Positions 281-32,000 are shown, counted from the first letter of the stretch. The stretch is 32,000 bases of DNA from Trichlorobacter lovleyi SZ (GCF_000020385.1 NC_010814.1:3420001-3452000), one strand, 5' to 3'. Numbers and translations are program-made. The notes: generated from the letters alone by a model not told the origin.

Positions 281-1275
281 TAGCGTGCTCCCCAGAACTG
301 GGCCACCGGACCGATGCCCGGCCTGAAACGGACCGTGGCATCCCGCATCAGAAAAGCTCTCACTGCCTGAAAGTCCCGGGCATAAAAAGCCAGTTCAGCC
401 TGATAAGGCAACAGCTTGAGCGGGTCAGCACCTGCTGCAAGGGCGGCTTGAATCGCCTCATCTGCCATGACGTAGTCACGTTTCTGAAGATGAATCCTGA
501 CCATCAGGACAAGTAGTGCCGGATTCCTGTTGCTTAACTGCAGTGCCTGCGCGGCATACTTGGCTGCCTGTTCCACAAAGAAGTCACGCAGGTCATCCTG
601 TGCCAGTGCGCTGTAAACCATCTCCCAGTATGAGAAGGCCAGATTACGGCAGACCGAGGCCTTAACCGCTGCTGTTTTGGCCTGCTTCAGCTCTTCCAGT
701 GAGGCGGAAATGGCCTGCTGAATCTTCTGTTCCTGGCGTTCATAGAGATTAAAGGCCAGAAGACGGATTTCATCGTCACTGTCGCCGGTGGCGTGCTGCA
801 GCAACCGGCTGGAATTATGTCCGCCGCTCGTCCCTACTGACAGCAGGGCCTTTAAACGCAGCTCACGGGGCAGGCCAACCGTGCGCAGACGGGACCAGGC
901 CCCCCCCTCTCCCATACCTGACCCCAGGTCGGCAGACTCTGCCTGAAAGGGAGGCAAGGGCACATTGGAAAACTCGGTCCGTTCTTCACTTGACAAAAAC
1001 ATCCGGAAGTACAGCAGGATCAACAAGGTGCCAACTGCGCCAAAGGCAGGCACAAAGAAGTTAAAGCAGAAAAAAAGCCCCAACAGGCCCCGGCGCAGCG
1101 CAACAAAGCGTTTGGGGAAACTGATGGCGAGCAGCAGAGAGAAGAGCGAGGACGCAATCAGATGCCCGGTGAGAAACAGCAGTACCCGTTGCCAGACCGG
1201 CTGCGTGCCAAAGACCGCCAGCAGGGCTGATTGCTCACTGCAGAGACCATAGATGAGCAGTTTCAGGCTGCTCAT
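280..1275 (-). CDS. pelE: PelE-like inner-membrane protein (N-terminal TM helices plus C-terminal TPR-like helical region)
   Basis: 331 aa. Hydrophobic N-terminal ~100 aa with several TM segments, then an Ala/Leu-rich helical repeat region. ATGA overlap with the pelD stop (1272-1275). It lies between pelD and pelF, and its size is close to P. aeruginosa PelE. Confidence 0.7.
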   Translation of the reverse strand: MSSLKLLIYGLCSEQSALLAVFGTQPVWQRVLLFLTGHLIASSLFSLLLAISFPKRFVALRRGLLGLFFCFNFFVPAFGAVGTLLILLYFRMFLSSEERTEFSNVPLPPFQAESADLGSGMGEGGAWSRLRTVGLPRELRLKALLSVGTSGGHNSSRLLQHATGDSDDEIRLLAFNLYERQEQKIQQAISASLEELKQAKTAAVKASVCRNLAFSYWEMVYSALAQDDLRDFFVEQAAKYAAQALQLSNRNPALLVLMVRIHLQKRDYVMADEAIQAALAAGADPLKLLPYQAELAFYARDFQAVRAFLMRDATVRFRPGIGPVAQFWGAR

Positions 1276-2585: not shown

Positions 2586-2586
2586 G

Positions 2587-3108
2587 CTAGCGCAACTCAA
2601 TCGTCGTGATCAGGTTCTCCAACACCTGCTGCGCAACAGCACTGACCGCCTCGCGGCTCCAGCCGCTTTTCCCCGAACTGCCGCTCCAGAGCACTTTGTC
2701 ATCACGCAGGTCAACCAGTTGCAGGGTCATACCGGCCACCGGCTCACCGTCGAGTCCGACCTTGTAACGCCACTCCGTCACTGTCCCTTGCAGGGCATAG
2801 CGAATATTTTGTTTTTTGGCCCAGGCAATCCCCTCCTGCCGCCGCTTCAGCCCCCGGTCCGGCAGTGCCTCGGCATCCGCCACCGGGTCCTGGGGGGCCG
2901 TTACCACTCGTTGGACTCCACGGGCGTATAACAGCGCGGTACTGATCGCCTCAGCCCGCTCTGCGGCAAAGGGGGTCTCCGTATTGTTCACAAACGGGAT
3001 GACCGCCCAGGTTTCCGCCTGCGGCACTGCCTCCCGCATCCCCTGATGCAGGGTAGTACAACCGGCCAGCATCACTAGTCCCACCAGAACAGGCACGACA
3101 CGTTTCAT
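2587..3108 (-). CDS. pelC: PelC-like outer-membrane lipoprotein
   Basis: 173 aa. Signal peptide with lipobox MKRVVPVLVGLVMLAGC. Strong SD (GAGGAGGAAATC) before the ATG at 3106-3108. Size and position match PelC. Confidence 0.8.
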   Translation of the reverse strand: MKRVVPVLVGLVMLAGCTTLHQGMREAVPQAETWAVIPFVNNTETPFAAERAEAISTALLYARGVQRVVTAPQDPVADAEALPDRGLKRRQEGIAWAKKQNIRYALQGTVTEWRYKVGLDGEPVAGMTLQLVDLRDDKVLWSGSSGKSGWSREAVSAVAQQVLENLITTIELR

Positions 3109-3137
3109 GATTTCCTCCTCATCTGCTGCATAGAAAC

Positions 3138-5966: not shown

Positions 5967-6862
5967 GGTGTTGCTGCCCCGGACGGTTCGCCAGACGACA
6001 AGCCAAGGGCCCGCCGGACATACTTCTGGGCCAGGTCGGGACGATTTGCAGCCAGTGCAAGTCTGGTCAGATACAGCAGAGTCTGACGATCATGTGCCAG
6101 CCCTGCATCAAGGTGCCGCTCAGCTGCCGTCAGCGCCTCAGCCAGCAGGTTGCCCGATTGCAGTGTTCGCACCCCAGCCAGAAAATAGACCCGTTTCTGA
6201 TTCAGCCCGGCGGCCTGCAACCCCTTAAAATACAGCTCTGCTGCGCCACGGTAGTCACCCTTGGCCAAGGCAGCGGAGGCCGCAGCCTCCACCGCCGGAG
6301 CTGTGCCCTGACCGGCAGCTGTCCCCAGCAGCGTCTCAAGCCGCTTCACTGTCTGCCGGTCACCAAGGGCACGGGCATCTGCCAGGTAGCGCACCAGCTC
6401 CTTCGGTGTGGCTCCGGCCTGCTTCAATTGTTCAATCTGGTCTGCATAGTCCTGCTGTGCCCGTTTCCAACCCGGCTCGCCGGTCAGCATCAGTTCCAAT
6501 TGCTGCCGTCGCGCTTCATAGTACAGCTGCATGACGGTCTTCGCCTGCTCTCTGCTCAGCACACCTTGGCGGTGTTCCAGCGCCTTCAGCGCCTTTTCCG
6601 TACAACCTGCGGCCAGATAACTGCGCGCCAGAATGATGACCAGATTGGGATCTCCCGTACGCAGATGTACCAGCGCCTCAAGGTAGCGTTGCTGGGCCGG
6701 ACTGGTCACATCCGGCGCCTCAAGCAGCCTCAGCAGGCTTTTTTCCGGATAGAGCACAACCAGCAGCAACAGCCCTGCCCCGACAAGTCCGGCAATGGCG
6801 GCCGGCCCGGCAAAGCGCTCACGCGGATTCTGCTGCTTATTGGCAGACCAGTTCCAGGCCAT
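5963..6862 (-). CDS. pelB: PelB N-terminal part: single-TM-anchored TPR protein
   Basis: 299 aa. TM helix AAIAGLVGAGLLLLVVLYP near the N-terminus, followed by TPR-like repeats (e.g. GDYRGAAELYFKGLQAAGLN). The ATG at 6860-6862 overlaps the end of pelA by 26 nt. It lies between pelA and the TPR-porin ORF. Confidence 0.65.
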   Translation of the reverse strand: MAWNWSANKQQNPRERFAGPAAIAGLVGAGLLLLVVLYPEKSLLRLLEAPDVTSPAQQRYLEALVHLRTGDPNLVIILARSYLAAGCTEKALKALEHRQGVLSREQAKTVMQLYYEARRQQLELMLTGEPGWKRAQQDYADQIEQLKQAGATPKELVRYLADARALGDRQTVKRLETLLGTAAGQGTAPAVEAAASAALAKGDYRGAAELYFKGLQAAGLNQKRVYFLAGVRTLQSGNLLAEALTAAERHLDAGLAHDRQTLLYLTRLALAANRPDLAQKYVRRALGLSSGEPSGAATP

Positions 6863-9593
6863 AGATCCCTGTTTTCAGCGGGAGGATAAGTTGTTCCGCA
6901 TCCCGTTGTACTGCCGCGGGTCTACCATTGGAGTCCAGACGGCAACCGGTGGCGTGAGCAAAGGTCAGGTAGCCATCTGTCTGAGCTGTCACGGTCAGGC
7001 GCATACCACTGGCCGTCCAGTCAAAGCGGTCAATGCCGGCAGTTGCAGTTGCCAGCCAGCTCCGACCGGGACGATGCTCCGTCAGCTGCAGGAACGCCTC
7101 TCCGCCGGGCGCCAGATGGATGTAACGTTGATCATGGTGATCCGAGAAACCGATCACCCCGCGGCTGGCTTCCAGATCCGGGTAGCCGGCGCTCACCGGC
7201 AGACGCAACTGTCGCAGATCGCCGTTGTTACGGATCAACCAGCCGCTGCCGGAACGGGCAACCACGGTGCGGTTGAAATCCAGCACCTTGTTAACGTAGT
7301 CGGAGGTAAAAATCGCGTGGGGTTTCCGGGCCAGCACCCAGCCGTAGACATCCTCCAGGGCACGGCGTGAGGCCTCCTTGGTAACCGAATAGGTGTGATA
7401 GTAGAGGTTGATCGGCTTCAGCCTGCGGGGGGCATCGGTCAACCGGAAGGTCTCGATCACCCGGCGATAGCCGTAAAAGGGACCGGTCCAGAGATTGGTA
7501 TAGACGTTTTCGTTCTGATTGGGGGCAAAAACCTGAAACCAGCCATTTTTTGCCACACCCAACGGTGCAACGGCCGTAAGCGACCTGTTTGATTCTGTTA
7601 TTACCGTGTCGCCGCCATTAATATTGCCCAGCCCGGCACGATAGGTGGCAGCCAGCGCATCGCCCCCGGGCGCACAGTCGCCAGACCACTGAAGCAGGCG
7701 GGTTTTTTTGCCGGGAGGCAACAGGGTCTGATTGATAAAGGCCGCCGAACCGGCAATCTCTGATTCAAGCTGGAAACGGTACCCGGGAATCGGTAAATAC
7801 TGGGCTGTGTAGCCCTGTTTGGCTACGTCGGTATTCTGCCAGTAAAAGGGATGGGAAAAGGTGTGGCTCCCCGCTTCAACCCAGGGCAGCGCAAAAATCT
7901 CACGGGCCTCAGCCTGCAATGCCGGGGCCTGCTGCGGGTTCAGGCCATGATCACCCAAGGTACTGGTGATCACGGAATAGGTGGTCGGTATCCGGTATTT
8001 TTTCAGGATACGCTCCCGCAGCTCGGTTACTGCCAGCGGTCCACCGGGGCGTTCAACCCTGCTCTCAAAACCGTCGGCATCAATGTGGGATAGTAGCAGG
8101 CGCACCCCGTTTTCGGTGGTGGTATCCGGTACGGGGCTGTTTTCAAGGCGCAAGGCCTTTCTGAAAAATTCAAAGGGGTTGATCACCCAGCGTTCACGTT
8201 CATTGATCAGCTCATTCAGCACGTAGGGTTCCAGGGCGTATCCCCCCCAGGAGGTTACCGCAACCGCCTCACTGGCCACCTGTTGGCCATCACCCACAGC
8301 CAGCAGCACCTCACTGCCGGGAAAACGAAGCGCCGGCGGTGCCCCGGACGGCATGACTGCCGTCTCAAATCCCATCAGAGCATCCTGCTGCATGACCTTA
8401 AGCCCTTTACCGGTGGTACGTCCGGCAAGCAGCGTCCCCCCCATCGCCTGGGCAAACTGCTGGGGCGGCACACCGAAACGATCCAGAAAGACCAGCGGCA
8501 GCTTGTGCTCCTTCTGGCGGACAAGCCATTGCAACAGGTTGCTCTTGCTGCCGGAACTGTCCGAGTTGGGCCAGACCACCACCCCGGCATAGCGCCCCGC
8601 AAGCTGACCTGCCGGTAACGGCTGGCGCATATCAACCAGCTCAACCTGATAGCCCAGATAGTTCAGCGGCATGACCACAAAACGCTGCAGGTTGGTGTAG
8701 ATCGGATCTGCCCCTTCACTGCCGTCATACAGCCCCAGGATCTTGCGCGGCAGCACCTCTACGGTTCCTACCCCCAACGAAGCCAGATCCTTGTCGGTCA
8801 CCCAGGGTATGAACCCGGCCTTCTTGATCTTCTCTGCGGTCGTGCGGGCCAGATCGCGCTCTGACGGAGCAACGTAGTCGATCACGATCACCGGAAGTCC
8901 TGCCTTGCGCACCTCGGCAAATTTTCCCAGCAGCCACTGGCGATCATCTTCGTTCACCTCACCATAGCTGCCGGTGGCGGGATCAAAGTTCCGGAAAAGC
9001 GATTCTGCAGCAACTGCAAAGGCGGCATCCTTGACACGCTCCAGCACCTCAAAACCGCGGTTCATGATCAAGCGGGCCTCGGGATGCCGCTTTTTGATGC
9101 TGCGGATAATCTCCACCAGCCCGGCCTCAAGGGCAGGATGCCGTTGTTTGTCCTGTACCAGTTGATAGGAGTCAAGCGTGTCCAGAAAAAACCCGCGATA
9201 ACCGGCTGCCCAGAGCGGCTCAACGACCTGATCCAGAAAAAATGCCCGCCAGTCAGGATTGGCCAGGTCAACCAGCTTGCTTTTCCAGACCCGGTTTTCA
9301 CCAAGCAACCAGTCCGGTTTGATCTGTTTGTAAAATTTTCGTTGGGGATCCGCTTCTCCGACACTAACATACGCAAACAGCTCGCTATGAGTATTCCGAT
9401 AAGATTGCGGGGCATACCCGGCAGCATCAGGATCAACCACCACCAGATCAAAGGCCTGCAGTTCATCCAATGGCGGATTATCAGCATAGAAAAAGGCCAC
9501 ACTGAATTGACCGGGGGCTGCAACAGCAGCTGTCGCAGCCGGCGTGGTATACACCAGCAGCATCAGCAGAAGTATTGCAGACAGGCGTTGCAT
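6837..9593 (-). CDS. pelA: PelA-like bifunctional Pel polysaccharide hydrolase/deacetylase
   Basis: 918 aa with signal peptide MQRLSAILLLMLLVYTTPAATAAVA. The N-terminal region is TIM-barrel glycoside-hydrolase-like (ELFAYVSVGE, GFFLDTLDSY, RLIMNRGFE). The central/C-terminal region is CE4 deacetylase-like (LLSHIDADGF, GSHTFSHPF). It is the first gene of the operon, as for pelA. Confidence 0.85.
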   Translation of the reverse strand: MQRLSAILLLMLLVYTTPAATAAVAAPGQFSVAFFYADNPPLDELQAFDLVVVDPDAAGYAPQSYRNTHSELFAYVSVGEADPQRKFYKQIKPDWLLGENRVWKSKLVDLANPDWRAFFLDQVVEPLWAAGYRGFFLDTLDSYQLVQDKQRHPALEAGLVEIIRSIKKRHPEARLIMNRGFEVLERVKDAAFAVAAESLFRNFDPATGSYGEVNEDDRQWLLGKFAEVRKAGLPVIVIDYVAPSERDLARTTAEKIKKAGFIPWVTDKDLASLGVGTVEVLPRKILGLYDGSEGADPIYTNLQRFVVMPLNYLGYQVELVDMRQPLPAGQLAGRYAGVVVWPNSDSSGSKSNLLQWLVRQKEHKLPLVFLDRFGVPPQQFAQAMGGTLLAGRTTGKGLKVMQQDALMGFETAVMPSGAPPALRFPGSEVLLAVGDGQQVASEAVAVTSWGGYALEPYVLNELINERERWVINPFEFFRKALRLENSPVPDTTTENGVRLLLSHIDADGFESRVERPGGPLAVTELRERILKKYRIPTTYSVITSTLGDHGLNPQQAPALQAEAREIFALPWVEAGSHTFSHPFYWQNTDVAKQGYTAQYLPIPGYRFQLESEIAGSAAFINQTLLPPGKKTRLLQWSGDCAPGGDALAATYRAGLGNINGGDTVITESNRSLTAVAPLGVAKNGWFQVFAPNQNENVYTNLWTGPFYGYRRVIETFRLTDAPRRLKPINLYYHTYSVTKEASRRALEDVYGWVLARKPHAIFTSDYVNKVLDFNRTVVARSGSGWLIRNNGDLRQLRLPVSAGYPDLEASRGVIGFSDHHDQRYIHLAPGGEAFLQLTEHRPGRSWLATATAGIDRFDWTASGMRLTVTAQTDGYLTFAHATGCRLDSNGRPAAVQRDAEQLILPLKTGIYGLELVCQ

Positions 9594-11659: not shown

Positions 11660-12937
11660 ATGAAATCAGCGACCATGGATCATTACGACATATCATTACT
11701 CTATGTAGAGGATGAACGGGTCACCCGTGAGCAGATTTCCCGAATCCTGCAACGGATCGTCACAGAGCTGCATGTCGCGGAAAACGGCCAGGAAGGCCTT
11801 GAACTCTACCGGGAGAAACACCCGGACATCATCATGACCGATATCATGATGCCGGTCATGAACGGCCTGGAAATGGCCCGTGAAATCCGCAAGTTGGATC
11901 ATGACAGCCAGATTATCATGCTGACCGCCTATAGCGACACCGAATATCTGCTGGAATGCATCAGCCTGGGGATCAACCAGTACGTGCAGAAGCCGGTGGA
12001 TTTTTCCCATTTGGCAACCGCAATAGAAACCTGCAGCAACTATGTCTTGCTGAAGCGGAAGCTGCACCAGCAGGAAAGCAAGATCCAGATGCTGTCTCAA
12101 GCGGTGGAACAGGCACCGGCACCGGTCATGATAACCTCATTAAGCGGCTCGATCGAATATGTCAATGCCATGTTCAGCCGCCTGACCGGCTATCAGGCCT
12201 CTGAAGTGCTGGGCCGCAATCCCCGCCTGCTGAAATCCGGCCTGAACTCTGCAGAGATCTACCACAACCTCTGGGAAACCATTTTGAGCGGCGAGGAGTG
12301 GAAGGGTGAGCTGGCCAACAAACGAAAAAACGGTTCCATCTATTGGGAAGTAGTCAAGATCTGCCCCTTACGCGATTCAGACAATGTGGTGACCGGTTTT
12401 TTGAAGGTTTCTCAGGATATCACTGAACGGAAACAATACGAAGAAAGCCTGCAGTACCTGGGCACCCATGACCCATTAACCGGCCTGTTCAACCGGGCCT
12501 ATTTCGATGCGGAACTGCAACGGATCGAGTCGGGCCGCGAATACCCGGTCAGTATCGTGATGGCCGACATTGATGGGTTGAAGGGGGTAAACGATTCACG
12601 CGGCCACGATGAGGGTGACCGCCTGATTAAAGGGGCGGCAGAGGTACTCTTGTCTGCCTTCCGCTCCAGCGACGTGGTTGCCCGGATCGGCGGAGACGAA
12701 TTTGCCGTGCTGCTCTCCCGCACCGACCATGACGCGGTTGTAGCGGCTATTCAACGGGTTAAAAACTGCGAAACCGATCCCAAGCTGGGAAATTTTGCCC
12801 GCTCACTTTCACTGGGAGCAGCAACGGCAGCACATCCGGATGAACTGCTGGACAGCATGAAGCTGGCTGACCGGCTTATGTATAAAGACAAGGCTGAACG
12901 CAAAGCCAGACACCTGAACAGCGCAACCAAGGCGTGA
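11660..12937 (+). CDS. Response-regulator diguanylate cyclase (REC-PAS-GGDEF) with I-site
   Basis: 425 aa. REC domain: YVEDE acidic pocket, phospho-acceptor D61 in IIMTDIMMP, and K in YVQKP. PAS domain: ITSLSGSIEYVNAMFSRLTGY...GSIYWE. GGDEF domain: DPLTGLFNR, and RIGGDEFAVLL with RSSD exactly 5 residues upstream (RxxD I-site). Confidence 0.9.
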   Translation: MKSATMDHYDISLLYVEDERVTREQISRILQRIVTELHVAENGQEGLELYREKHPDIIMTDIMMPVMNGLEMAREIRKLDHDSQIIMLTAYSDTEYLLECISLGINQYVQKPVDFSHLATAIETCSNYVLLKRKLHQQESKIQMLSQAVEQAPAPVMITSLSGSIEYVNAMFSRLTGYQASEVLGRNPRLLKSGLNSAEIYHNLWETILSGEEWKGELANKRKNGSIYWEVVKICPLRDSDNVVTGFLKVSQDITERKQYEESLQYLGTHDPLTGLFNRAYFDAELQRIESGREYPVSIVMADIDGLKGVNDSRGHDEGDRLIKGAAEVLLSAFRSSDVVARIGGDEFAVLLSRTDHDAVVAAIQRVKNCETDPKLGNFARSLSLGAATAAHPDELLDSMKLADRLMYKDKAERKARHLNSATKA

Positions 12938-19492: not shown

Positions 19493-20341
19493 ATGATCAC
19501 AGACCTGGAACAGATCATCATGACGGCCGGCGATCTGCCCACCATTCCGGTTGTTGCCACCAAGGTTATGCAACTGATGGAGGATGAAAATTCCACTGCC
19601 GACGATCTGGCCAGGGTGGTTTCCTCTGATCCGGCCGTAGCCGCCAGGGTACTGAAGATATCCAACTCATCATTTTATGGCGCTCAGCGCCAGATCCAGA
19701 CCCTGCCCCATGCCATCATGATGCTTGGTTTTGTCACCCTGAAGAGCGTTGTCGTAACCGCGTCGGTCAAACAGGTCTATCACCCCTATGGTCTGACGGA
19801 AAAACTGCTCTGGGAACACTCCTTTGGCGCCGGCCTGGCAGCCCGCCTGATTGCGCAGGAGTTGCGCCAGATCAATCCGGACGAAGCTTTTTTAGGGGGA
19901 CTGTTTCACGATATCGGCAAACAGATCATGAACTATCTGGACAAAGACAAGTTTCAGGAAGTCATGCAGATTTGCTACAATGAAAAAATTCCGTTCGAAA
20001 CAGCGGAGCGGATGTTGTTTCCCTACACCCACGAAGAGGCCGGGGCGCTGGTGTTAAAAAAGTGGAACTTCCCCGAACAGATGATTAAAGCGGTCATGGC
20101 GCACCATGACCTTGACCTGGCAGATGACGAAGACCCCTATCTGATCAATCTCTCCAACGTAGTCAGCCTTTCAAGCCTGTTCTGCCATCGCTACGGGATC
20201 GGCACACTGGTCGCAGAAGAGGATCTGGATGTCGCTGCCAGCGCTCCCGCCGTCCGCCTGGGATTAAACGAAGAACGGATTGCAACCCTGCTGGAACGCT
20301 TTATTGAAACCTACACCAAGGATCAGTCGTTCTTTAGTTAG
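19493..20341 (+). CDS. Stand-alone HDOD-domain signalling protein
   Basis: 282 aa. LPTIPVVATKVMQLMEDENSTADDLARVVSSDPAVAARVLKISNSSFYG, and later GLFHDIGK and HEEAGALVLKKWNFP, are typical of HDOD domains. SD AGGGGA precedes the ATG. Confidence 0.85.
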   Translation: MITDLEQIIMTAGDLPTIPVVATKVMQLMEDENSTADDLARVVSSDPAVAARVLKISNSSFYGAQRQIQTLPHAIMMLGFVTLKSVVVTASVKQVYHPYGLTEKLLWEHSFGAGLAARLIAQELRQINPDEAFLGGLFHDIGKQIMNYLDKDKFQEVMQICYNEKIPFETAERMLFPYTHEEAGALVLKKWNFPEQMIKAVMAHHDLDLADDEDPYLINLSNVVSLSSLFCHRYGIGTLVAEEDLDVAASAPAVRLGLNEERIATLLERFIETYTKDQSFFS

Positions 20342-23039: not shown

Positions 23040-24041
23040 TTAAATCCTGAACCGGTCCAGCTCATCCTCCTGCAGATCATTCAGCACACTGATTTCTGAT
23101 CGTTTGCCATCAACCTGCAGACTTACACAGGCTGCCTCCCCTTTGGCGGCCCTGGTGTAGCGCAACAGAATCCGTCCTGCCTGCACCAAATCCGCTTCCT
23201 GGGGTTCTCCCAGCAACAGCACCAGCGGACTGGCGCCATCCATCCAGCGCAGGGTGGTTTCACCAGCACCGATGGCGGCCAGAATCTTCTCGTTGTCACT
23301 ACTGTCCCGCCCAACCACCGCCTTACAGGTCTCAGACAGCCGAAAGTGCCTACCGGTACGCAGCAGATCAAAATCCCTGATCACCGGCACGGTCTGGTGG
23401 TCCAGCAGATCCTTGACCTTGGGGATGTAGCTCTCCTCGGTCAGCAGACAGCCGCCACCCGGCGCCGGATACTCATCAACCCCCAGTTCGGCTGCCAGCC
23501 GCATCTGGTCCTTACGCCCCCGCCCCTTGATGGCAGGTAGCTGCTCCCGGTTGACCCAGCCCTCTGCCTCCGGTATGGTCACCTTCATATATTTTGCAGA
23601 AAGCGGACGCAGCAGCAGACCGGCAATGCCGCAATCCCGCTCAATCAGACGCAGGGTATCCTGACGCTGGCTCATGGGGCGCTGCCCCACCACCTCACCG
23701 GTGATCACAAAGTCAGCCTGCAACTCCTGCAACAGGGCTCCAGCACAGCGCAGCATGAAGGTCTTGCAGTCAATGCAGGGATTCAGGGCGCTGCCGTAGC
23801 CGTGGCGGGGATGCCGTAACATCTCGATAAATTCTGCCCCCAACGGGATAGAGCGGAACGGAATGTCATAACGCCGGGCATATCTGGCCGCCACCGGTTC
23901 ACCATCAAGGATCGGAGAACAGCCGAAAAAAGGCGAGGTGAAGTTGATGGCAAGGACATCAATCCCCTGCTGCTGGATCACCTTCACTGCCAGGATTGAA
24001 TCCAGGCCACCGGAAAATAACGCTAGGGCTCGACGCTGCAT
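23040..24041 (-). CDS. PP-loop (SGGxDS) ATP pyrophosphatase, MnmA/ThiI-like, putative tRNA thiolation enzyme
   Basis: 333 aa. ALFSGGLDS PP-loop at the N-terminus and NPCIDCK motif. Strong SD AAGGAG. The exact subfamily is not resolved. Confidence 0.65.
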   Translation of the reverse strand: MQRRALALFSGGLDSILAVKVIQQQGIDVLAINFTSPFFGCSPILDGEPVAARYARRYDIPFRSIPLGAEFIEMLRHPRHGYGSALNPCIDCKTFMLRCAGALLQELQADFVITGEVVGQRPMSQRQDTLRLIERDCGIAGLLLRPLSAKYMKVTIPEAEGWVNREQLPAIKGRGRKDQMRLAAELGVDEYPAPGGGCLLTEESYIPKVKDLLDHQTVPVIRDFDLLRTGRHFRLSETCKAVVGRDSSDNEKILAAIGAGETTLRWMDGASPLVLLLGEPQEADLVQAGRILLRYTRAAKGEAACVSLQVDGKRSEISVLNDLQEDELDRFRI

Positions 24042-24118: not shown

Positions 24119-24146
24119 TTGACTCACCATCATATCAGGTTACAAT
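24119..24146 (+). promoter_or_regulatory. Candidate sigma70 promoter for the pilB-like/pilT pair
   Basis: TTGACT (24119-24124), a 16-nt spacer, then TACAAT (24141-24146). It is 33 nt upstream of the ATG at 24180, with SD AAGGGAG. Confidence 0.45.
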
Positions 24147-24179: not shown

Positions 24180-25832
24180 ATGCCGATCAATGTCAGAGAA
24201 GGTACGCTGGGTGCCATCCTCTACAACTCACGTATCATCAGTGAAGCCGACATCACTGCCGCCCTTGAAGAGCAGCAGCGCAGCAGCAGCCGCTTCGGTG
24301 AAGCCCTGGTATCGCTGGGAATTGTCACCCAGGAGGATATCGACTGGGCACTCTCCAATCAGCTGGACATCCCCTATATCCGTCTCAAGCAGGAGATGAT
24401 TGACCCGGAGGCGTTGAGCCTGCTGCCGCCGCACCTCTGCCGGATACACCAGCTGATCCCGTTGATCCGGGCTGGAGATGAACTTTCAATTGCCATTGCC
24501 GATCCGCTCAACAAAGAAGCAGTGACCGCGGCAGCAGAGGCTTCAGGCTGCCGGATCAACCTCTCGGTGGCCCTGATCCGGGAGATCAATGAGATGCTTG
24601 ACCTCTGTTATGGTCTACCCAGGGAAGATCTGCTGGGGTTCAGCTCCGGCCTTCTATCACCGGAACAGCTCAGCTCCATCAATGCCGACAGCAGCGGCCA
24701 GCAACTGATCAACAGTCTGCTGGCCTACAGCATCCAGCACCAGCTGACCTCCTTTTCCTTCAGACCGCTTGAGGATCTGATCAGCATCTCCGGCCGCAGC
24801 GGGGCAACCAGCCATGAGCTGGGACAGTTGACGCATGAACACTATGCCGGGCTGTGCACACTGCTCAGAAAGGCTGCCGGGCTGTTGCCATCGGGCGAGA
24901 CATCACAGAGCGGTTGTCTCTTTTTTCAGTACCATGAACGGGAGATCTGCTTTCAGGTACTGCTGCTGCAAGGGGCAAACGGTGACTACCTCACCATCCG
25001 CCAGCATATCAGCGCCACCATTCCGGCAAAATTGGACCTGCTGCAACTGCCCGACTTTCAGAAACAGCAGTTCAGACGACTGGCAACCCGACGTCAGGGA
25101 ATGATCCTGTTTGCCTCCCGCTCGTTGCAGGAACGTTGCCGTTTCATGGACCTGATGCTGGAAGAGCTGGACACCGACGGACAATCGGTGCTGATTCTGG
25201 GCAAGGAGCCGGGCCGCATGAACAAGCGCTTCCCCCGCATCCCCCTTGCCGGTTCGGAAGCGGCCAGGGGACGTCTGATCATGGACAGCCTGGAACATGG
25301 CCCGGACATTCTGGTGATTGAGGATGGTACGGCACTGGAGTCATTCACGGCAGCCGGCCGGGCCGCCATGCGGGGCAAACTGGTGCTGGTGGGAATGGAT
25401 ATCCGCGGCACCCGCAACCTGTGCGACCACCTGATCCGCTTTCGTCAGCGCAACGCCTTTCTGACCCCGTTTCTTTCCGGTATTGTATCATTCAAAGGCA
25501 TTCAGCTACTCTGTCCCTCCTGCAGACAGGCCGCCACCATAGCGCAACAGGAACTACTCGGCCTGCAGATGCAGCCACCACCTGCAGAGCTGTACCATGC
25601 AACAGGCTGTCCACAATGTAACTACACCGGGGTCAGTGAACGGATTTTTCTGACCAACTGCATCTGTTTTGACCGTGAACTGCACGCCCGTTTTGATGCC
25701 GCTTCTGACGGAAGCAGTTTTATCGCCGGACTTAATGCTGATGGGTATCGCGGCATCAAGGCGGAAGGCGAGGTTCTCTTGAAGGCGGGAGCTGTATCAC
25801 CGGAAGAGTTCATTGCTGCTGTCATTCAATAA
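24180..25832 (+). CDS. PilB/GspE/MshE-like protein with MshEN-type N-terminus and degenerate (pseudo-)ATPase domain
   Basis: 550 aa. aa 9-61 form two 24-aa MshEN-like motifs separated by a 5-aa spacer. A T2SSE_N-like region follows (IPLIRAGDELSIAIADPLNKEA). Tetracysteine CPSC...CPQC is present. Walker A, Asp box, Walker B and His box are all replaced (FASRSLQERC, LGKEPG, DILVIEDGTA, RGKLVLVGMDI). Confidence 0.8.
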   Translation: MPINVREGTLGAILYNSRIISEADITAALEEQQRSSSRFGEALVSLGIVTQEDIDWALSNQLDIPYIRLKQEMIDPEALSLLPPHLCRIHQLIPLIRAGDELSIAIADPLNKEAVTAAAEASGCRINLSVALIREINEMLDLCYGLPREDLLGFSSGLLSPEQLSSINADSSGQQLINSLLAYSIQHQLTSFSFRPLEDLISISGRSGATSHELGQLTHEHYAGLCTLLRKAAGLLPSGETSQSGCLFFQYHEREICFQVLLLQGANGDYLTIRQHISATIPAKLDLLQLPDFQKQQFRRLATRRQGMILFASRSLQERCRFMDLMLEELDTDGQSVLILGKEPGRMNKRFPRIPLAGSEAARGRLIMDSLEHGPDILVIEDGTALESFTAAGRAAMRGKLVLVGMDIRGTRNLCDHLIRFRQRNAFLTPFLSGIVSFKGIQLLCPSCRQAATIAQQELLGLQMQPPPAELYHATGCPQCNYTGVSERIFLTNCICFDRELHARFDAASDGSSFIAGLNADGYRGIKAEGEVLLKAGAVSPEEFIAAVIQ

Positions 25833-25856
25833 TCGACGACATGGAGACAAACAACC

Positions 25857-26927
25857 ATGGCTAAAATAGATGCACTGTTCAAGATGATGAAAGAACAGGG
25901 GGCTTCAGACCTGCACCTCTCATCCGGCAACCCACCCATCTTCCGCCAGCATGGCGAGATGGTCCGGCTGCAGTTCAAACCGCTCTCCCACGAAGAGTTG
26001 ATCCCGATCCTGTATGAGATCCTCAATGATGAGCAGCGGGCCCAGTTCGAGGCCACCAACGACCTGGACTTTGCCTACGCCGTACCGGATCTGGCCCGTT
26101 TCCGTGGCAACATCATGATGACCCACCGTGGCGTGGCAGCGGTCTTCAGGATCATCCCGGCTACGATCCTCTCGGCAGACCAGCTGAACCTGCCGGAAGG
26201 GGTGCGGCGGATGACCCAGTTCAAAAAGGGGCTGGTACTGGTGACCGGCCCGACCGGTTCCGGTAAATCCACCACCCTGGCAGCTCTGATCGATCTGATC
26301 AATGCCACCCGCAAGGAACATATCCTGACCCTGGAAGACCCGCTGGAGTTCATCCATGAAAACAAACAATCGCTCTTGAACCAGCGTCAGATCGGGGCGC
26401 ACACCAACTCGTTCGCCTCGGCCCTGCGGGCCGCCCTGCGGGAAGACCCGGACATCATCCTGGTGGGAGAGATGCGGGATCTGGAGACGATCCAGCTGGC
26501 CATGAGCGCTGCCGAGACCGGTCACCTGGTCTTCGGCACCCTGCACACCAACACCGCAGCCAAGACCATTGACCGGATCATTGATGTCTTTCCGAAGGAA
26601 TCACAGGATCAGGTTCGCACCATGCTGTCGGAATCGCTCAAGGGGGTGGTCTGCCAGCAACTGCTCAAGACTGCTGATGGTCACGGACGGGTGGCAGCCC
26701 TGGAGATCATGCTGGGTACCCCGGCCATTGCCAACCTGATCCGCGAAGGCAAGACCTTCCAGATCCCCTCCATCATCCAGACCGCCAAGAAAGACGGCAT
26801 GCAGCTGATGGACCAACACCTGCTGGATCTGCTCAAGACCAGGCAGATCAACCCGGAAGAGGCCCACCGCTGTGCCATTGACAAGAAACAGTTTGAACAG
26901 TACCTGCCTCAGACACCTGCGACATAG
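25857..26927 (+). CDS. pilT: Type IV pilus retraction ATPase PilT
   Basis: 356 aa. Walker A GPTGSGKST, EDPLEF, REDPDIILVGEMRD, TGHLVFGTLHTN, and the PilT signature AIANLIREGKTFQIPSIIQT. Confidence 0.9.
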   Translation: MAKIDALFKMMKEQGASDLHLSSGNPPIFRQHGEMVRLQFKPLSHEELIPILYEILNDEQRAQFEATNDLDFAYAVPDLARFRGNIMMTHRGVAAVFRIIPATILSADQLNLPEGVRRMTQFKKGLVLVTGPTGSGKSTTLAALIDLINATRKEHILTLEDPLEFIHENKQSLLNQRQIGAHTNSFASALRAALREDPDIILVGEMRDLETIQLAMSAAETGHLVFGTLHTNTAAKTIDRIIDVFPKESQDQVRTMLSESLKGVVCQQLLKTADGHGRVAALEIMLGTPAIANLIREGKTFQIPSIIQTAKKDGMQLMDQHLLDLLKTRQINPEEAHRCAIDKKQFEQYLPQTPAT

Positions 26928-27105: not shown

Positions 27106-28926
27106 CTACATTTCTACTCTTGTGACGACACCCTGTAATTTTGCCGCCGGCAGCTTGTTAAACTGCACAAAATTGGGGGTCAGCTTCTTGATCAGGGCAA
27201 AGAACTTCCAGATCGGGTTGGTGGTGGCAATATCTTCAATACCGTAGAAGATGACCTTCTCTGTGATACCGTAAGCCCTGATGATCTTTTCAATCTCGAT
27301 CACTTCCATGTAGCCAGCCTGAATCTCAAACCCCTCCAGCCCCGGCCCCATTTCCTTGGTATGCAGGCTTTCAACCCCGAACGGTTCATCGGTCCGTACG
27401 ATGGAAATCAACACGTTACGCTCATAGATAATGTTGCTGCGGATCACGCAGTGCACCAGATAGGGGGGGATCACATCCAGTCCCCGCACAAAGAACAGAC
27501 CGGTGCCGGGTATGTTGCGACCTTTGCCGAAGATCTGCTCGTAGGAGATCATGAAGGTCTCCAGATCCAGTGGTTTGAGGGCATGGTACAGCGCCTTCTG
27601 GCCCCTGGTCCAGACCATGATGGTGACAAACGGAATGGCAGCAAGAATGATTGACCAGTAGGCACCGTGGGGGATCTTGGAAAAGGTGGAGGTGAAATAG
27701 ATCAGGTCCAGAATACCCACCACCACCACGATCGGCACCTTCCATTTTTTCATGGTGTGGGAGTAGACCATGATCATCATGATGGCGGTAATGGTCATGG
27801 AGCCGGTCACGGCCATACCGTAGGCCGCGGCCAGATTCCCGGACTTCTGAAAAAAGAACATCACAAAGATCACGGCGGTCATCAGGGTCCAGTTGACCGC
27901 ACCGATGTAGATCTGGGACTGGATATGGGTAGAGGTGTAATCCACCTTCATCAGCGGCATCAGCCGGGTGGTGATCCCCTGGTAGACAATGGAAAAGACC
28001 CCGCTGATGATCGCCTGGGAGGCAATGATGGTGGCCATGATGGTCAGCAGCAGGAACGGGATGTAGAGCAGCGGCGCCTGATGGTTGATCATGGCAAACA
28101 GGATATTCTTGGTCTGGCCGCTGCTCAGGATAAAGGCCCCCTGGCCCAGGTAGTTCAGGTAGAGGGCAAAGAAGACAAAGTACCAGGCCCGCACGATCGG
28201 CTTGCGTCCCAGATGCCCCATATCGGCATAGAGCGCCTCGCCGCCGGTGGCGCAGAGGATCACCTCCGACAGTACAATGTAACCGGCAAAGCCGTTCTGG
28301 CGGAAAAACTCAAAGGCGTAATGGGGGCTGATCGCCTTGACGATGCCCGGCATACCGGCGATGGAGACCAGACCGGAAAGCATCAGGGCGCCAAAATAAA
28401 GGGCCATGATCGGCCCGAAGATTTTTGCCACCTTGTCGGTGCCGCGGTGCTGGAAGAAGAACAGAGTAAAGGCAATCAGAGCAGCAATCAGCACCAGCAC
28501 GGTCTGTTTTGTCCCTGCCAGCGCCGGGATCAGCAGCAGACCTTCCACAGCCGACAGGATTGAGATGGCCGGGGTGATTACACCATCACCAAGCAATAGG
28601 GAGACCCCCAGAAACGAGAGGAACCCGGCAAAGGCCAGCAGACGCCCCTGCTTGAGCATCTTGATCAGGATCTCCCTCAGGACGATCTCGCCCCCCTGCC
28701 CCTTGCGTCCCAACGCCATGGCCAGCCAGGCATACTCCACCGTCACCAGAATAGTCATGGTCCAGAACACCAGCGACAGGATGCCGTAGACGTTGGCAAC
28801 GGTCGGTTTGGTCAGGGCAAAGACAATGGTCAGGGTATAGATCGGGCTGGTGCCGATATCGCCGAACACCAGGCCCAAGGCCTTGATGATACCGCCCCAG
28901 AAGGAATCTTCATGTTTGTGGGTCAT
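27106..28926 (-). CDS. kup: KUP/HAK/KT-family potassium uptake transporter
   Basis: 606 aa. N-terminal LGLVFGDIGTSPIYTL signature, ~12 hydrophobic segments, and a cytoplasmic C-terminal domain ending LQGVVTRVEM. Confidence 0.95.
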   Translation of the reverse strand: MTHKHEDSFWGGIIKALGLVFGDIGTSPIYTLTIVFALTKPTVANVYGILSLVFWTMTILVTVEYAWLAMALGRKGQGGEIVLREILIKMLKQGRLLAFAGFLSFLGVSLLLGDGVITPAISILSAVEGLLLIPALAGTKQTVLVLIAALIAFTLFFFQHRGTDKVAKIFGPIMALYFGALMLSGLVSIAGMPGIVKAISPHYAFEFFRQNGFAGYIVLSEVILCATGGEALYADMGHLGRKPIVRAWYFVFFALYLNYLGQGAFILSSGQTKNILFAMINHQAPLLYIPFLLLTIMATIIASQAIISGVFSIVYQGITTRLMPLMKVDYTSTHIQSQIYIGAVNWTLMTAVIFVMFFFQKSGNLAAAYGMAVTGSMTITAIMMIMVYSHTMKKWKVPIVVVVGILDLIYFTSTFSKIPHGAYWSIILAAIPFVTIMVWTRGQKALYHALKPLDLETFMISYEQIFGKGRNIPGTGLFFVRGLDVIPPYLVHCVIRSNIIYERNVLISIVRTDEPFGVESLHTKEMGPGLEGFEIQAGYMEVIEIEKIIRAYGITEKVIFYGIEDIATTNPIWKFFALIKKLTPNFVQFNKLPAAKLQGVVTRVEM

Positions 28927-29076: not shown

Positions 29077-30114
29077 TCAGGTATCTTCCAGATTGCCGGA
29101 AAGCCCTTCAATCCGTTTGCTCATCTCTTCCGGAGACGGGAAATATTTTTTAAGTTCTTTTGGCAGTTTGTTTGAAAGCTTGTATGTCGAAACACCAATC
29201 GGTTTATTGCTGTCTCTCAAGGCATATTCGACAAAGGTCCTGCTTTTCTCCTTACAAAGGATGATGCCGATAGAAGGCTCCTCATCAGGCAATCGAACGG
29301 TATCGTTAAGCGCTGAAAGATAAAACTGCATCTTGCCTGCATATTCCGGTTTGAACGCTCCGATTTTCAGTTCAATTGCAACAAGGCAGCGCAACTGCCG
29401 GTGATACAGAAGCAGATCGATGAAAAACTCTGATCCGTCAATTTCCAGCCGGTATTGATTGCCAACAAAGGTAAAGTAGCCACCCATCTCCACCAGAAAC
29501 TTCCGTACATTGTCCACCAATGCCCGTTCAAGCTCTTTTTCCGAGTGCCCATCGGACATCTCCAGAAAGTCGAAGGTATATTCATCCTTAACCGCCAGTT
29601 TTGCCTGATGCCGGTATTTTTCCGGCACTGCTTTGTCAAAGTTGGTCTGGTTCGCCATAAATTTTTCAAAGGCACCAGCCTCAATCTGGTTGATAAGAAC
29701 ATCCTTGGTCCAGCCGAACTTCTTGGTTATCTTGATGTAAAACTCGCGCTGAAGTAGATCCTTACAGCGTTCCATGATGATGACATTTTTCGTCCAGCTG
29801 ATTTCTGCAGCCAATGGTTGCAGTTTTTGATTGTCCTTGTATGCCAGATAAAAGTTCTTCATATTCCAGAGGTTTCGTGAGGAAAACCCCTGCAGTCCAG
29901 GGAACTCGTTCTGTAAATCCCTCGCCAAAGTTTCTACAACCGCCTTGCCCCAGCCAAGCTGTTCCTGTCTGCTGACTATTGATTTTCCGATGTCCCAGTA
30001 CAGACTGATAAGCTCTTTATTTACTGCCTTCAGTGCGGCGTACTGGGCGTTGTGTATTCGTTCTTTCAGTTCCAGAAGGAATGTTGTGTATTCGGCGGGC
30101 AGGATATTGGTCAT
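29077..30114 (-). CDS. DUF1016 / YhcG-family PD-(D/E)xK nuclease-like protein
   Basis: 345 aa. The N-terminal block LKERIHNAQYAALKAVNKELISLYWDIGKSIV...GWGKAVVETLARDLQNEFPGLQGFSSRNLWNMKNFY is characteristic of DUF1016. The C-terminal FIDLLLYHRQLRCLVAIELK fits D...E-x-K. GC is clearly lower than the flanks. Confidence 0.85.
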   Translation of the reverse strand: MTNILPAEYTTFLLELKERIHNAQYAALKAVNKELISLYWDIGKSIVSRQEQLGWGKAVVETLARDLQNEFPGLQGFSSRNLWNMKNFYLAYKDNQKLQPLAAEISWTKNVIIMERCKDLLQREFYIKITKKFGWTKDVLINQIEAGAFEKFMANQTNFDKAVPEKYRHQAKLAVKDEYTFDFLEMSDGHSEKELERALVDNVRKFLVEMGGYFTFVGNQYRLEIDGSEFFIDLLLYHRQLRCLVAIELKIGAFKPEYAGKMQFYLSALNDTVRLPDEEPSIGIILCKEKSRTFVEYALRDSNKPIGVSTYKLSNKLPKELKKYFPSPEEMSKRIEGLSGNLEDT

Positions 30115-30378: not shown

Positions 30379-32000
30379 CTACATCTCCACCCGCGTTACC
30401 ACCCCCTGCAGCCGGCTGGCAGGCAGCTTGTTAAACTGCACAAAGTTGGGGGTCTGGCGCTTGATGGTGGCAAACAGCTTCCAGACCGGGTTGGGGGTAC
30501 TGATATCTTCCACCCCGTAGAAAATCACCTTCTCCTTGATCCCGTGCTGCTGCAGCAGTGTCTCAATCTCCAGATGTTCCATATAGCCGGCGTGAATCTC
30601 AAAGGCATCCAGTCCGGTGGCGATGCCGGTTTTAAGTTCCGACACCAGACCAAACGGCTCGTCAGTCCGCACAATGGAAATAAAGACGTTACGTTCATAG
30701 ATAATATTGCTGCGGATGATGCAATGCACCACATAGGGGGGTACCACATTGTACTCCTTCACAAAAAACAGGCCGGTGCCGGGGATGTTGCGCCCTTTGG
30801 CGTAGATCTGCTCATAGGCCAGCTCAAAGGTGTCCAGCTCCAGCGGACGCAGGGCGCGGTACAGGGCCCGCTGTCCCTTGGTCCAGACCAGAATGGTGAT
30901 AAACGGCACCGAGGCCAGGATGATTGACCAGTAGCCGCCATGTGGCAGCTTGTGCAGGCAGGCGGTAAAAAACACCAGATCCACCACGGTGATCAGGGCG
31001 GCAAAGACCGCCTTCCAGGCCTTGGTGGTGCGGGAGAGGATCAGGATCATCATGATGCCGGTGATACTCATGGAACCGGTCACGGCCAGACCGTAGGCCG
31101 CTGCCAGATTTTCTGACTTCTGGAACACCAGCATGATCACCACCACCGCAATCATCAGCATCCAGTTGACCGAGCCGATGTAGATCTGTGATTTCAGATG
31201 ACTGGAGGTATAGTCCACCTTCAGAAGCGGCAGGATGCGGGTGGTGATCCCCTGGTAGACAATTGAAAAGACCCCGCTGATCATGGCCTGGGAGGCGATG
31301 ATGGTGGCCAGGATAGTCAGGATCAGGAACGGGATATACAGCAGCGGCGCCTGATGCTGCACCATACCGAACAGGTAGTTCTTGGCGCCGGGGTGGGAGA
31401 TGATGAAGGCCCCCTGGCCCAGATAGTTGAGGTACAGCGCCCAGAAGACAATATACCAGGCCCGCACAATCGGCTTGCGCCCCAGATGGCCCATGTCGGC
31501 ATACAGTGCCTCACCGCCGGTGGCACAGAGGATCACCTCGGACAGCACAATGAACCCGGCCAGACCGTTGTCCAGTAGAAACTGCAGGGCGTAATGGGGG
31601 CTGACCGCAAACAGCACGGTGGGGTGCGAGGCAACCGAGACCGCACCGGAAAGCGCCAGGGAGGCAAACCAGACGACCATGATCGGCCCGAAGGCACCGG
31701 CCACCTTGTCAGTCCCCTTGAACTGGAAGACAAACAGTCCCACCGCGATAATAGCAGCGATCAGGATCAGCCAGGACTGGTGCAGCCCACCCAGGCCGGG
31801 AATCAACACCATCCCCTCAACCGCCGAGAGGATCGAAATGGCCGGGGTGATCACCCCGTCTCCCATCAACAGACTGACCCCCAGATAGGTCAGAAAGACC
31901 ACAAAGGTAAGCTGGCGCCCCGGCCTGATCATCCTGGCCAGGATCTCCTTCAGCACGATTGCGCCCCCCTCTCCCTTGCGCCCCAGCCGCATGGCCAGCC
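30379..32000 (-). CDS. kup: KUP/HAK/KT-family potassium uptake transporter, second paralog (N-terminal ~70 codons off-window)
   Basis: The frame is open to the window edge. The 537 aa visible align along their whole length with residues ~70-606 of the first Kup (e.g. GDGVITPAISILSAVEG, CATGGEALYADMGHLGRKPIVRAWY, LQGVVTRVEM). Confidence 0.9.
   Translation of the reverse strand, partial: LAMRLGRKGEGGAIVLKEILARMIRPGRQLTFVVFLTYLGVSLLMGDGVITPAISILSAVEGMVLIPGLGGLHQSWLILIAAIIAVGLFVFQFKGTDKVAGAFGPIMVVWFASLALSGAVSVASHPTVLFAVSPHYALQFLLDNGLAGFIVLSEVILCATGGEALYADMGHLGRKPIVRAWYIVFWALYLNYLGQGAFIISHPGAKNYLFGMVQHQAPLLYIPFLILTILATIIASQAMISGVFSIVYQGITTRILPLLKVDYTSSHLKSQIYIGSVNWMLMIAVVVIMLVFQKSENLAAAYGLAVTGSMSITGIMMILILSRTTKAWKAVFAALITVVDLVFFTACLHKLPHGGYWSIILASVPFITILVWTKGQRALYRALRPLELDTFELAYEQIYAKGRNIPGTGLFFVKEYNVVPPYVVHCIIRSNIIYERNVFISIVRTDEPFGLVSELKTGIATGLDAFEIHAGYMEHLEIETLLQQHGIKEKVIFYGVEDISTPNPVWKLFATIKRQTPNFVQFNKLPASRLQGVVTRVEM

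Follow-up and report, generated by a model that had tools for sequence, protein, structure and literature searches.

The window analysed here, a 32,000-nucleotide stretch of the Trichlorobacter lovleyi SZ genome (GCF_000020385.1, NC_010814.1:3420001-3452000), contains two closely spaced genes on its plus strand, which encode a 550-residue protein resembling the PilB and MshE ATPases of type IV pilus systems and, starting 24 nt past the end of the first gene, a 356-residue protein of the PilT type (Table 1). The open reading frame (ORF) of the PilB-like protein is intact and starts with ATG, with the Shine-Dalgarno sequence AGGGAG 5 nt upstream, while pilT has a separate ribosome-binding site (GGAGA), and no terminator-like site was found between the two genes. 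The original prediction, made from the sequence of the window alone, held that the first gene encodes a catalytically dead PilB/MshE-like protein with a sensor for c-di-GMP (cyclic dimeric guanosine monophosphate), paired with an intact PilT; its account of the reading frame, the Shine-Dalgarno sequence and the spacing of the genes is reproduced by the ORF call. A riboswitch or other RNA element upstream of the pair was also considered, and no Rfam match at the gathering threshold was found across the whole window.

The catalytic motifs of the PilB-like protein were mapped by HMMER alignments to PilB of Myxococcus xanthus (3JC8), PilB of Geobacter sulfurreducens (5ZFR) and PilF of Thermus thermophilus (6F8L). 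The Walker A sequence GPTGSGKT corresponds to S313-R-S-L-Q-E-R-C320, the Asp box EDPVE to K342-E-P-G-R346, the Walker B sequence DIIMIGEIRD to D376-ILVIEDGTA385, and the His box TGHLVLSTLHT to R398-GKLVLVGMDI. The arginine-finger motif RxPQDGR of the second N-terminal domain (N2D) is gone as well, a loss that the original prediction did not contain; the protein has ETSQSGC at aa 240-246, where G245 is the sole residue conserved across the family described below. The zinc site CxxC...CxxC is kept (C445, C448, C477 and C480), and its four cysteines are invariant both in 121 family sequences and in 75 full-length ORFs from 80 metagenome loci. The alignments agree with the replacements first reported for Walker A, Walker B and the His box and with the retained tetracysteine; for the Asp box the loss had been recognised at the right site, as LGKEPG, and only its position was off by two residues (KEPGR, aa 342-346). 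A functional P-loop elsewhere in the protein, which had been named as a finding that would tell against the proposal, was sought by a pattern scan of the whole protein, in which neither G....GK[ST] nor [AG]....GK[ST] occurs. The sole match to these patterns among 80 metagenome relatives is GPAEIGKT at aa 145 of L073, which lies in the linker between MshEN and N2D of a protein whose core is still degenerate.

The fold appears to have outlived the chemistry. Pfam places MshEN at aa 62-148 and matches T2SSE only at aa 366-542, the C-terminal half of the ATPase core, leaving the N-terminal 200 core positions of the T2SSE profile unmatched, and the equivalog models for PilB (TIGR02538, 91.4 bits against a cutoff of 675.65) and GspE (TIGR02533, 57.4 bits against 630.25) both score below their cutoffs. 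An AlphaFold2 model built on an alignment of 70 family sequences has a predicted local distance difference test score of 87.1, and its best Foldseek matches are GspE (4PHT), PilF (5OIU) and G. metallireducens PilB (5TSH), with E values of ~1e-27 to 1e-28 and a template modelling score of ~0.7 against Geobacter PilB. According to this model the PilB-like fold is kept despite the lost chemistry, and the profiles, the model and the structural matches all bear out the PilB/GspE/MshE architecture initially proposed. With respect to membership in the PilB/GspE/MshE ATPases, the N2D and C-terminal domain (CTD) fold with its zinc tetracysteine is present, and Walker A, the Asp box, the catalytic Glu of Walker B, the His box, the arginine fingers and an equivalog-level score are all lacking. 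Because it lacks the catalytic features by which the PilB/GspE ATPase family is defined, the protein should not be annotated as an ATPase and is best regarded as a putative non-catalytic PilB/MshE paralogue, that is, a pseudo-ATPase. The former ATP pocket is remodelled and not randomised, since the Walker lysine has given way to an invariant Arg (R319) and Walker B still has two adjacent acidic residues (E381-D382), a nuance that had been missed.

The N-terminal region, by comparison with this core, retains most of the c-di-GMP site of MshE. MshE of Vibrio cholerae (5HTL) aligns without gaps over aa 1-84, and both proteins start with MPIN, hence the motifs and spacer carry the same residue numbers in the two. 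Two 24-residue motifs separated by a 5-residue spacer stand at the N terminus of a T2SSE_N fold, as in the MshEN layout, and the NCBIfam model NF053729 ('c-di-GMP_motif') matches aa 10-61 with 57.2 bits against a cutoff of 38, over profile positions 2-53 of 53; both results confirm the 24-5-24 arrangement first noticed at aa 9-61. Motif II (RFGEALVSLGIVTQEDIDWALSNQ) follows the consensus RLGxx(LVI)(LVI)xxG(LVI)(LVI)xxxx(LVI)xxxLxxQ with L2->F as its sole departure, which is permitted ('h') by the relaxed motif of the authors who defined it (PMC5013675). Motif I (TLGAILYNSRIISEADITAALEEQ) deviates at position 1 (T9) and position 10 (R18) and fits elsewhere, so that the first assessment of the two motifs holds in full. 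Position 1 of motif I is S or T in 114 of the 121 family sequences and R in none, and L10, G11, I25, L29 and Q32 are conserved. At this position the published forms of the motif accept R, K or L (extended consensus, PMC11731258) or R, K, P or N (relaxed consensus, PMC5013675), with G, A or S at position 10; the alignment indicates that PilB of M. xanthus and of Geobacter likewise have no G at position 10 of motif I.

Conservation of the ligand site extends well beyond the close family. In motif II, R38, G40, E41 and A57 are invariant in the 121 sequences, with L58 kept in 115 and Q61 in 118; among 35 representatives of a wider clade, L29 and G40 are found in all 35, E41 in 34, L58 and Q32 in 33 each, and R38 and Q61 in 32 each. 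The ligand-pocket positions named for MshE (PMC5013675) are kept in kind at 12 of 14, R9 being lost and D12 variable. In MshE, D12 contacts the ligand through its backbone, the first guanine has Arg9 stacked on it, and alteration of Arg9 changed affinity by at most ~5-fold, the hydrophobic residues counting for more (PMC5013675). The GSPII-B domain of PilF binds c-di-GMP with a dissociation constant of 6 nM, and position 1 of its two motifs is Lys in one and Leu in the other (PMC11731258), an example in which an Arg at this position is dispensable. By alignment column, the c-di-GMP motifs are the most conserved part of the protein (top-residue frequency 0.82) and the dead CTD core comes second (0.78); the ratio of nonsynonymous to synonymous substitution rates (dN/dS) for the motifs is 0.05-0.09 in the three comparisons with unsaturated dS. 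The sensor appears to be the module that selection holds tightest, since the ligand-pocket positions are near-invariant in the 35 representatives while residues of the former ATP site drift. This conservation of the motifs suggests that the 550-residue protein may be responsive to c-di-GMP.

The product of the second gene has every hallmark of a retraction ATPase. It scores 479.3 bits with TIGR01420 (cutoff 319.1), has all the expected motifs (GPTGSGKS, EDPLE, DIILVGEMRD, GHLVFGTLHT and AIANLIRE), and finds its best match in the Protein Data Bank in Pseudomonas aeruginosa PilT (390 bits, against 353 for Geobacter PilT4 and 256 for PilU). Adjacency, which was scored only where enough downstream sequence was available, is constant: pilT lies directly downstream in 7/7 close genome loci, in Oryzomonas japonica, in another relative of ~50% identity and in loci at 39-47% identity, where the other neighbours differ, and it is also found in 3/3 loci of a sub-clade at 27-29% identity, with gaps of 4-7 nt. 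Altogether it follows in 15 of 15 non-metagenome loci, some with pilT cut by the contig end, and, in a scan of 80 metagenome loci, in all 70 whose downstream sequence runs to 300 nt or more, at a median gap of ~18 nt. The catalytic motifs are complete in each of the seven full-length partner PilTs that were inspected; an eighth, truncated at a contig end, keeps those that are present. The identities of pseudo-PilB and PilT co-vary (Spearman 0.82, n=72), a correlation of which shared phylogeny alone would give some part. No other gene is a universal neighbour of pseudo-PilB, and no pil, msh or gsp genes are linked to the pair in the loci examined. Both the intactness of PilT and the conservation of the pair, the latter originally put forward as a check, are upheld, with adjacency in every scorable locus (70 from metagenomes and 15 others). 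Gene linkage and co-divergence together point to a possible action on PilT or on the pilus platform.

Table 1. Features of the pseudo-ATPase and pilT gene pair; positions are counted from the first nucleotide of the window.
Feature	Position	Strand	Basis
Sigma-70-like promoter candidate, TTGACT-16-TACAAT, upstream of PilB-like gene	24119-24146	+	Consensus scan, 10/12 matches; consensus match only
Putative PilB/MshE-like pseudo-ATPase, 550 aa: MshEN, N2D, degenerate CTD, Zn tetracysteine	24180-25832	+	
c-di-GMP motif I, aa 9-32, TLGAILYNSRIISEADITAALEEQ; no Arg at position 1, no Gly at position 10	24204-24275	+	Gapless alignment to MshE 5HTL residues 9-32
Spacer of 5 residues, aa 33-37, QRSSS	24276-24290	+	Length and position as in MshE (PMC5013675)
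c-di-GMP motif II, aa 38-61, RFGEALVSLGIVTQEDIDWALSNQ; canonical save L2->F	24291-24362	+	NF053729
MshEN C-terminal subdomain, aa 62-148	24363-24623	+	Pfam PF05157, 59.9 bits
Lost N2D arginine-finger site, GETSQSGC where canonical is RxPQDGR	24894-24917	+	HMMER alignments to PilB, PilF
Degenerate Walker A, aa 311-321, FASRSLQERCR; Walker lysine replaced by invariant R319	25110-25142	+	Alignments
Degenerate Asp box, aa 342-346, KEPGR for EDPxE	25203-25217	+	Alignments, family consensus
Degenerate Walker B, aa 376-385, DILVIEDGTA for DIIMVGEIRD; acidic pair E381-D382 kept	25305-25334	+	Alignments, family consensus
Degenerate His box, aa 398-409, RGKLVLVGMDIR; both histidines gone	25371-25406	+	Alignments, family consensus
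Zn-binding tetracysteine segment, C445, C448, C477, C480	25512-25619	+	Cysteine conservation
Intact PilT3-type retraction ATPase, 356 aa	25857-26927	+	TIGR01420, motifs
PilT Walker A	26247-26270	+	
PilT Asp box	26334-26348	+	
PilT Walker B	26451-26480	+	
PilT His box	26520-26549	+	
PilT AIANLIRE	26724-26747	+	

The pseudo-ATPase belongs to a family of its own. When 5.8 billion proteins were searched, 539 homologues were recovered; the top 120 have lengths of 546-554 aa and identities of 49-97%, and those with a named source belong to Geobacter, Trichlorobacter, Oryzomonas, Geobacteraceae and Desulfuromonadales. Of the genome matches that have a name, Trichlorobacter thiogenes is the nearest (81% identity). 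In public annotation these proteins are called 'pilus assembly protein PilB' or 'ATPase'. The sequences that replace the catalytic motifs are themselves conserved as a separate consensus: F-A-S-R-[NS]-x-Q-E-R-[CD]-R-F for Walker A, ILG[EN][GE]PGR for the Asp box, HxPDILVIED[AG]T for Walker B and RAAMRGKLVLAG for the His box. Orthologues with the same degenerate motifs, whose absence had been named as a sign of recent decay, are thus present, and recent decay is unsupported. Against four orthologues, the whole gene has a dN/dS of 0.10-0.20, its dead core one of 0.09-0.20 and pilT one of 0.02-0.06. Purifying selection, hundreds of orthologues of the same length, the lack of a P-loop elsewhere and the pairing with pilT strongly favour a sensor or adaptor, as was originally argued, over a decaying gene.

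Degeneration of PilB-like proteins also appears to be a broader phenomenon than first supposed. When the profile search was widened to 1.84 billion representatives of clusters at 50% identity, it recovered many PilB-like proteins with xLG...Q / R[FL]G...Q motifs and four cysteines yet degenerate catalytic motifs; Walker A is degenerate in about 66 of the best 150 representatives and canonical in 72. A neighbour-joining tree places 40 degenerate representatives, including the query, in one clade, with smaller degenerate groups scattered elsewhere; as a crude distance tree, in which long-branch attraction may inflate the 40-member clade, it is used only for the claim of one large clade plus scattered losses. 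Position 319, the Walker-lysine site, is an invariant R in the close family and R or K in 26 of the 35 clade representatives, and an acidic-then-basic pair, [DE][RK], is common at the former GK position across the whole clade. Six degenerate representatives (P0146, P0149, P0152, P0168, P0170 and P0188) keep the Walker lysine in a glycine-poor loop (for example GPGKLEKLS or GTDRIEKYK) and have Lys at position 1 of motif I. Several separate stretches match the family profile in eight proteins of 860-1325 aa (P0137, P0143, P0148, P0150, P0151, P0155, P0211 and P0224); the best-matching stretch of P0155, P0211 and P0224 covers the MshEN region with no ATPase core aligned, and these three probably carry repeated MshEN-like modules, and most of the eight have canonical cores, like PilF.

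A probable counterpart of the pair has already been described in G. sulfurreducens, where pilT3 (GSU0436) lies downstream of 'mshE' (GSU0435), an order reported to be conserved in G. metallireducens and G. uraniireducens, and where cultures grown with Fe(III) oxide contain both proteins in abundance (PMC5065972). In the same study PilT3 alone restored normal piliation and retraction to a P. aeruginosa ΔpilT strain, and deletion of pilT3 in Geobacter merely delayed attachment to electrodes (PMC5065972). Of the peptides encoded by the published pilT3 primers, MTQFKKG occurs unchanged in the window PilT, and MIDLIN has the counterpart LIDLIN; the reverse primer for GSU0435 has a homologous site in family loci, with 2-4 mismatches, and the forward primer was left unplaced. 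PilT3 was reported to resemble P. aeruginosa PilT more than PilT4. The window PilT seems to behave as a PilT3 orthologue, because the primer-encoded peptides match and it is likewise closer to P. aeruginosa PilT than to PilT4, and GSU0435, judged from the published primers and the gene order, very likely belongs to the pseudo-ATPase family. GSU0435 is 26% identical to PilB and was listed among the genes that might act as, or compensate for, PilB in ΔpilB strains (PMC8557921). Both studies (PMC5065972, PMC8557921) treat it as a PilB/MshE-type ATPase, and motif loss is mentioned in neither. A literature search found no description of such a protein and no paper noting the missing catalytic motifs, and among the Geobacter architectures given in the MshEN paper's supplement (GAF- and REC-MshEN-T2SSE) there is none that joins MshEN to a degenerate core. 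The original statement that no characterised example of the pairing was known therefore stands for the motif loss, found in no paper, and has to be amended for the gene pair, of which GSU0435-pilT3 is the probable published counterpart.

The surroundings of the pair vary between loci. In the window, a Pel exopolysaccharide cluster (280-9593, minus strand) comprises a PelA-like GH114 protein (6837-9593), PelB with TPR and a C-terminal beta-barrel (3138-5966), PelD (1272-2600) with a GAF domain and a degenerate GGDEF c-di-GMP receptor domain, and two ORFs with no Pfam match (5963-6862 and, in the PelE position, 280-1275). A REC-PAS-GGDEF putative diguanylate cyclase (11660-12937, plus strand) and an HDOD-domain protein (19493-20341, plus strand) are both encoded less than 12 kb from pseudo-PilB. 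The window is rich in c-di-GMP signalling genes, and this neighbourhood is unconserved in other loci; the idea that the Pel/PelD, GGDEF and HDOD genes form one conserved system with the pair was rejected, as the neighbours differ there. Divergent from pseudo-PilB, a gene at 23040-24041 (minus strand) encodes a 333-residue protein in which a ThiI-like PP-loop domain is fused to an NFACT-R_2 RNA-binding domain; a divergent ThiI/NFACT-R_2 gene lies upstream of the pair in 30 of the 80 metagenome loci and in L012, as in the window, and dnaB does so in 38 loci. Beyond pilT, two genes for Kup-type K+ transporters (27106-28926 and 30379-31992, both on the minus strand, the second running off the window end) surround a YhcG/DUF1016 PDDEXK-nuclease gene (29077-30114, minus strand); the relatives L004, L005 and L007 have a single kup after pilT, which suggests a duplication or insertion in the window.

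Two further neighbours are found in more distant loci. In the sub-clade of ~27% identity, a PatA_N (PATAN) gene comes after pseudo-PilB and PilT in L013 (7777-9030) and L014 (7816-8994), with a weak REC match in L014. In cyanobacteria, type IV pilus motors are interaction partners of PATAN response regulators, and a neighbour of this kind would fit a motor-regulation module. In L012, about 3 kb upstream of a pair of 47% identity, a gene at 1113-2201 combines a response regulator with HD_5/HD matches (HD-GYP-like, possibly a c-di-GMP phosphodiesterase).

It is plausible, with a probability that we put at roughly 0.55, that the pseudo-ATPase reads c-di-GMP through its MshEN head and gates its cognate PilT, access to the PilC/PilM platform, or both. 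The protein would be made together with a competent PilT3-type retraction ATPase from the closely spaced adjacent gene, and its two 24-residue motifs would bind c-di-GMP. The ligand state would then decide whether the PilB-like body docks on the cognate PilT, on the PilB/PilT docking site of the PilC/PilM platform, or on both, and this docking would control when the motor for retraction is able to work. Parts of this scheme that we infer are the binding of the ligand, the oligomer formed, the partner contacted and whether regulation is positive or negative. That PilT3 is otherwise competent yet gives a mild phenotype in its native host (PMC5065972) fits a conditionally gated motor.

Several observations weigh against such a switch. 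Motif I is without the stacking Arg and, at positions 1 and 10, departs from the published motif even in its relaxed form, so that affinity or specificity may differ from those of MshE, and the literature yielded no tested MshEN domain with S or T at position 1. The former ATP pocket still has the E381-D382 acidic pair and the invariant basic residue at the Walker-lysine position, and some residual or alternative ligand binding there is possible. The pair was never seen inside a pil gene cluster in the loci examined, and it is therefore PilT that provides the whole link to the type IV pilus machine. In addition, reverse transcription PCR in G. sulfurreducens suggested that mshE and pilT3 are possibly not co-transcribed (PMC5065972).

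Among other explanations, the strongest is that the protein mimics PilB and acts as a competitive blocker, its dead, hexamer-like body filling the PilB site on PilC/PilM in a c-di-GMP-dependent manner so that extension is switched off; the co-expressed PilT would merely clear existing fibres, with no direct contact between pseudo-ATPase and PilT. Such a blocker would be expected to keep a docking surface, and the full PilB-like N1-N2-CTD-Zn scaffold is indeed kept, the CTD core being second in conservation (0.78) though dead. We nevertheless consider this scenario unlikely, as it gives a less ready account of the co-divergence with PilT and of an adjacency that is constant down to 27% identity, and in none of the loci does a gene for the platform accompany the pair.

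A dinucleotide effector with a non-pilus output, such as exopolysaccharide or secretion control, or else a high-affinity c-di-GMP buffer, is improbable. It would agree with the sensor being the most conserved module, with a pair that is never in a pil cluster and with a window that holds the Pel cluster with PelD, the REC-PAS-GGDEF protein and the HDOD protein, and M. xanthus PilB is reported to signal to exopolysaccharide production independently of its ATPase activity (PMC5544727). However, the Pel/GGDEF neighbourhood is unconserved in other loci while pilT is always kept, and a buffer would have no need of the ~400 conserved residues of the PilB body.

There is still less room for a non-canonical enzyme that binds nucleotide and hydrolyses it weakly, or for a pocket that accepts another anionic ligand. 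R319 is invariant in the family and R/K in 26 of 35 clade representatives, E381-D382 remain at Walker B, and R314, R321, R346, R398 and K400 are conserved in segments that, by homology to canonical PilB, would line the ATP pocket; yet no P-loop glycine, no Mg-ligating Ser/Thr, neither His-box histidine, no Asp-box acid and no N2D arginine finger is left, a Glu precedes the basic residue where a P-loop requires Gly, and the T2SSE profile misses the N-terminal 200 core positions. A decaying pseudogene or annotation artefact, for which the motif loss itself and nothing further could be cited, has a negligible chance of being right and is already refuted by the homologue search, the conserved replacement motifs and a dN/dS of 0.10-0.20, with the 550-residue frame intact in hundreds of genomes and a confident AlphaFold2 model.

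Returning to a c-di-GMP-dependent gate on PilT, a bolder extension, which we regard as a long shot, is that the whole clade constitutes an unrecognised class of pilus-motor regulators, in which a dinucleotide at the MshEN site, made asymmetric by the loss of the capping Arg of motif I, would be completed by, or bridge to, PilT, as a molecular glue that turns this dedicated motor for retraction on or off. In a speculative variant, the altered site would prefer 3'3'-cyclic GMP-AMP, the second dinucleotide messenger of Geobacteraceae, and would tie retraction to metal-respiration signalling. The remodelled, Arg-rich former ATP pocket might also serve as a second ligand site.

In comparison with known systems, V. 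cholerae MshE, PilB of M. xanthus, Geobacter and Chloracidobacterium, and T. thermophilus PilF have in common with the 550-residue protein the MshEN-N2D-CTD order, the zinc tetracysteine and the predicted fold, and V. cholerae MshE also has the tandem 24-5-24 c-di-GMP motif at the same residue numbers. Unlike them, the protein has no catalytic motifs, arginine fingers or Arg at position 1 of motif I, and its gene is coupled to pilT and not to pilC, pilin or msh genes. The closest likeness in gene order is to G. sulfurreducens GSU0435-GSU0436, with orthology drawn from the published primers. The FimX-PilZ-PilB system, with the GGDEF/EAL domains of FimX, and PelD follow the same logic, in which an enzyme fold devoid of catalysis regulates a pilus motor or polysaccharide machine in a c-di-GMP-dependent way (PMC11656802). 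Their folds are unrelated, however, and in the present case it is the motor fold itself that has degenerated, an intact MshEN module set apart from it provides the ligand site, and the linked motor is the retraction and not the extension ATPase. PilU is likewise a PilT/PilB-superfamily paralogue encoded beside pilT and is thought to act through or with PilT (PMC6762196). In contrast to the pseudo-ATPase, PilU keeps its ATPase motifs and has no MshEN or zinc site, and the partner gene in the window is of the PilT type and not the PilU type. Archaeal ArlH (FlaH), a non-hydrolysing RecA/KaiC-like partner of the archaellum motor ArlI, is a P-loop-fold protein with impaired catalysis that modulates a motor of the PilT/FlaI superfamily; it differs in its fold family, in that it can still bind ATP, and in lacking a sensor for cyclic dinucleotides.

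Control of type IV pili by c-di-GMP is known mainly through the extension motor, either directly, as in MshE, PilB and PilF, or by way of FimX-PilZ. Control of retraction is much less clear, and a conserved, putatively ligand-sensing dead copy of PilB that travels with PilT is a concrete and testable candidate for it. If GSU0435 belongs to the family, no ATPase activity is to be expected from it, which bears on the debate about the assembly of pili or pseudopili in ΔpilB strains (PMC8557921). The names 'PilB' and 'ATPase' in public annotation mislead for these proteins, which combine the probable receptor character of MshE/PilB-type proteins with the absence of the catalytic features of the family and are relevant to the pilus, c-di-GMP and Geobacter fields alike. 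Degenerate members make up about 66 of the 150 representative clusters with the best scores, so pseudo-ATPases may be common, and overlooked, in type IV filament systems.

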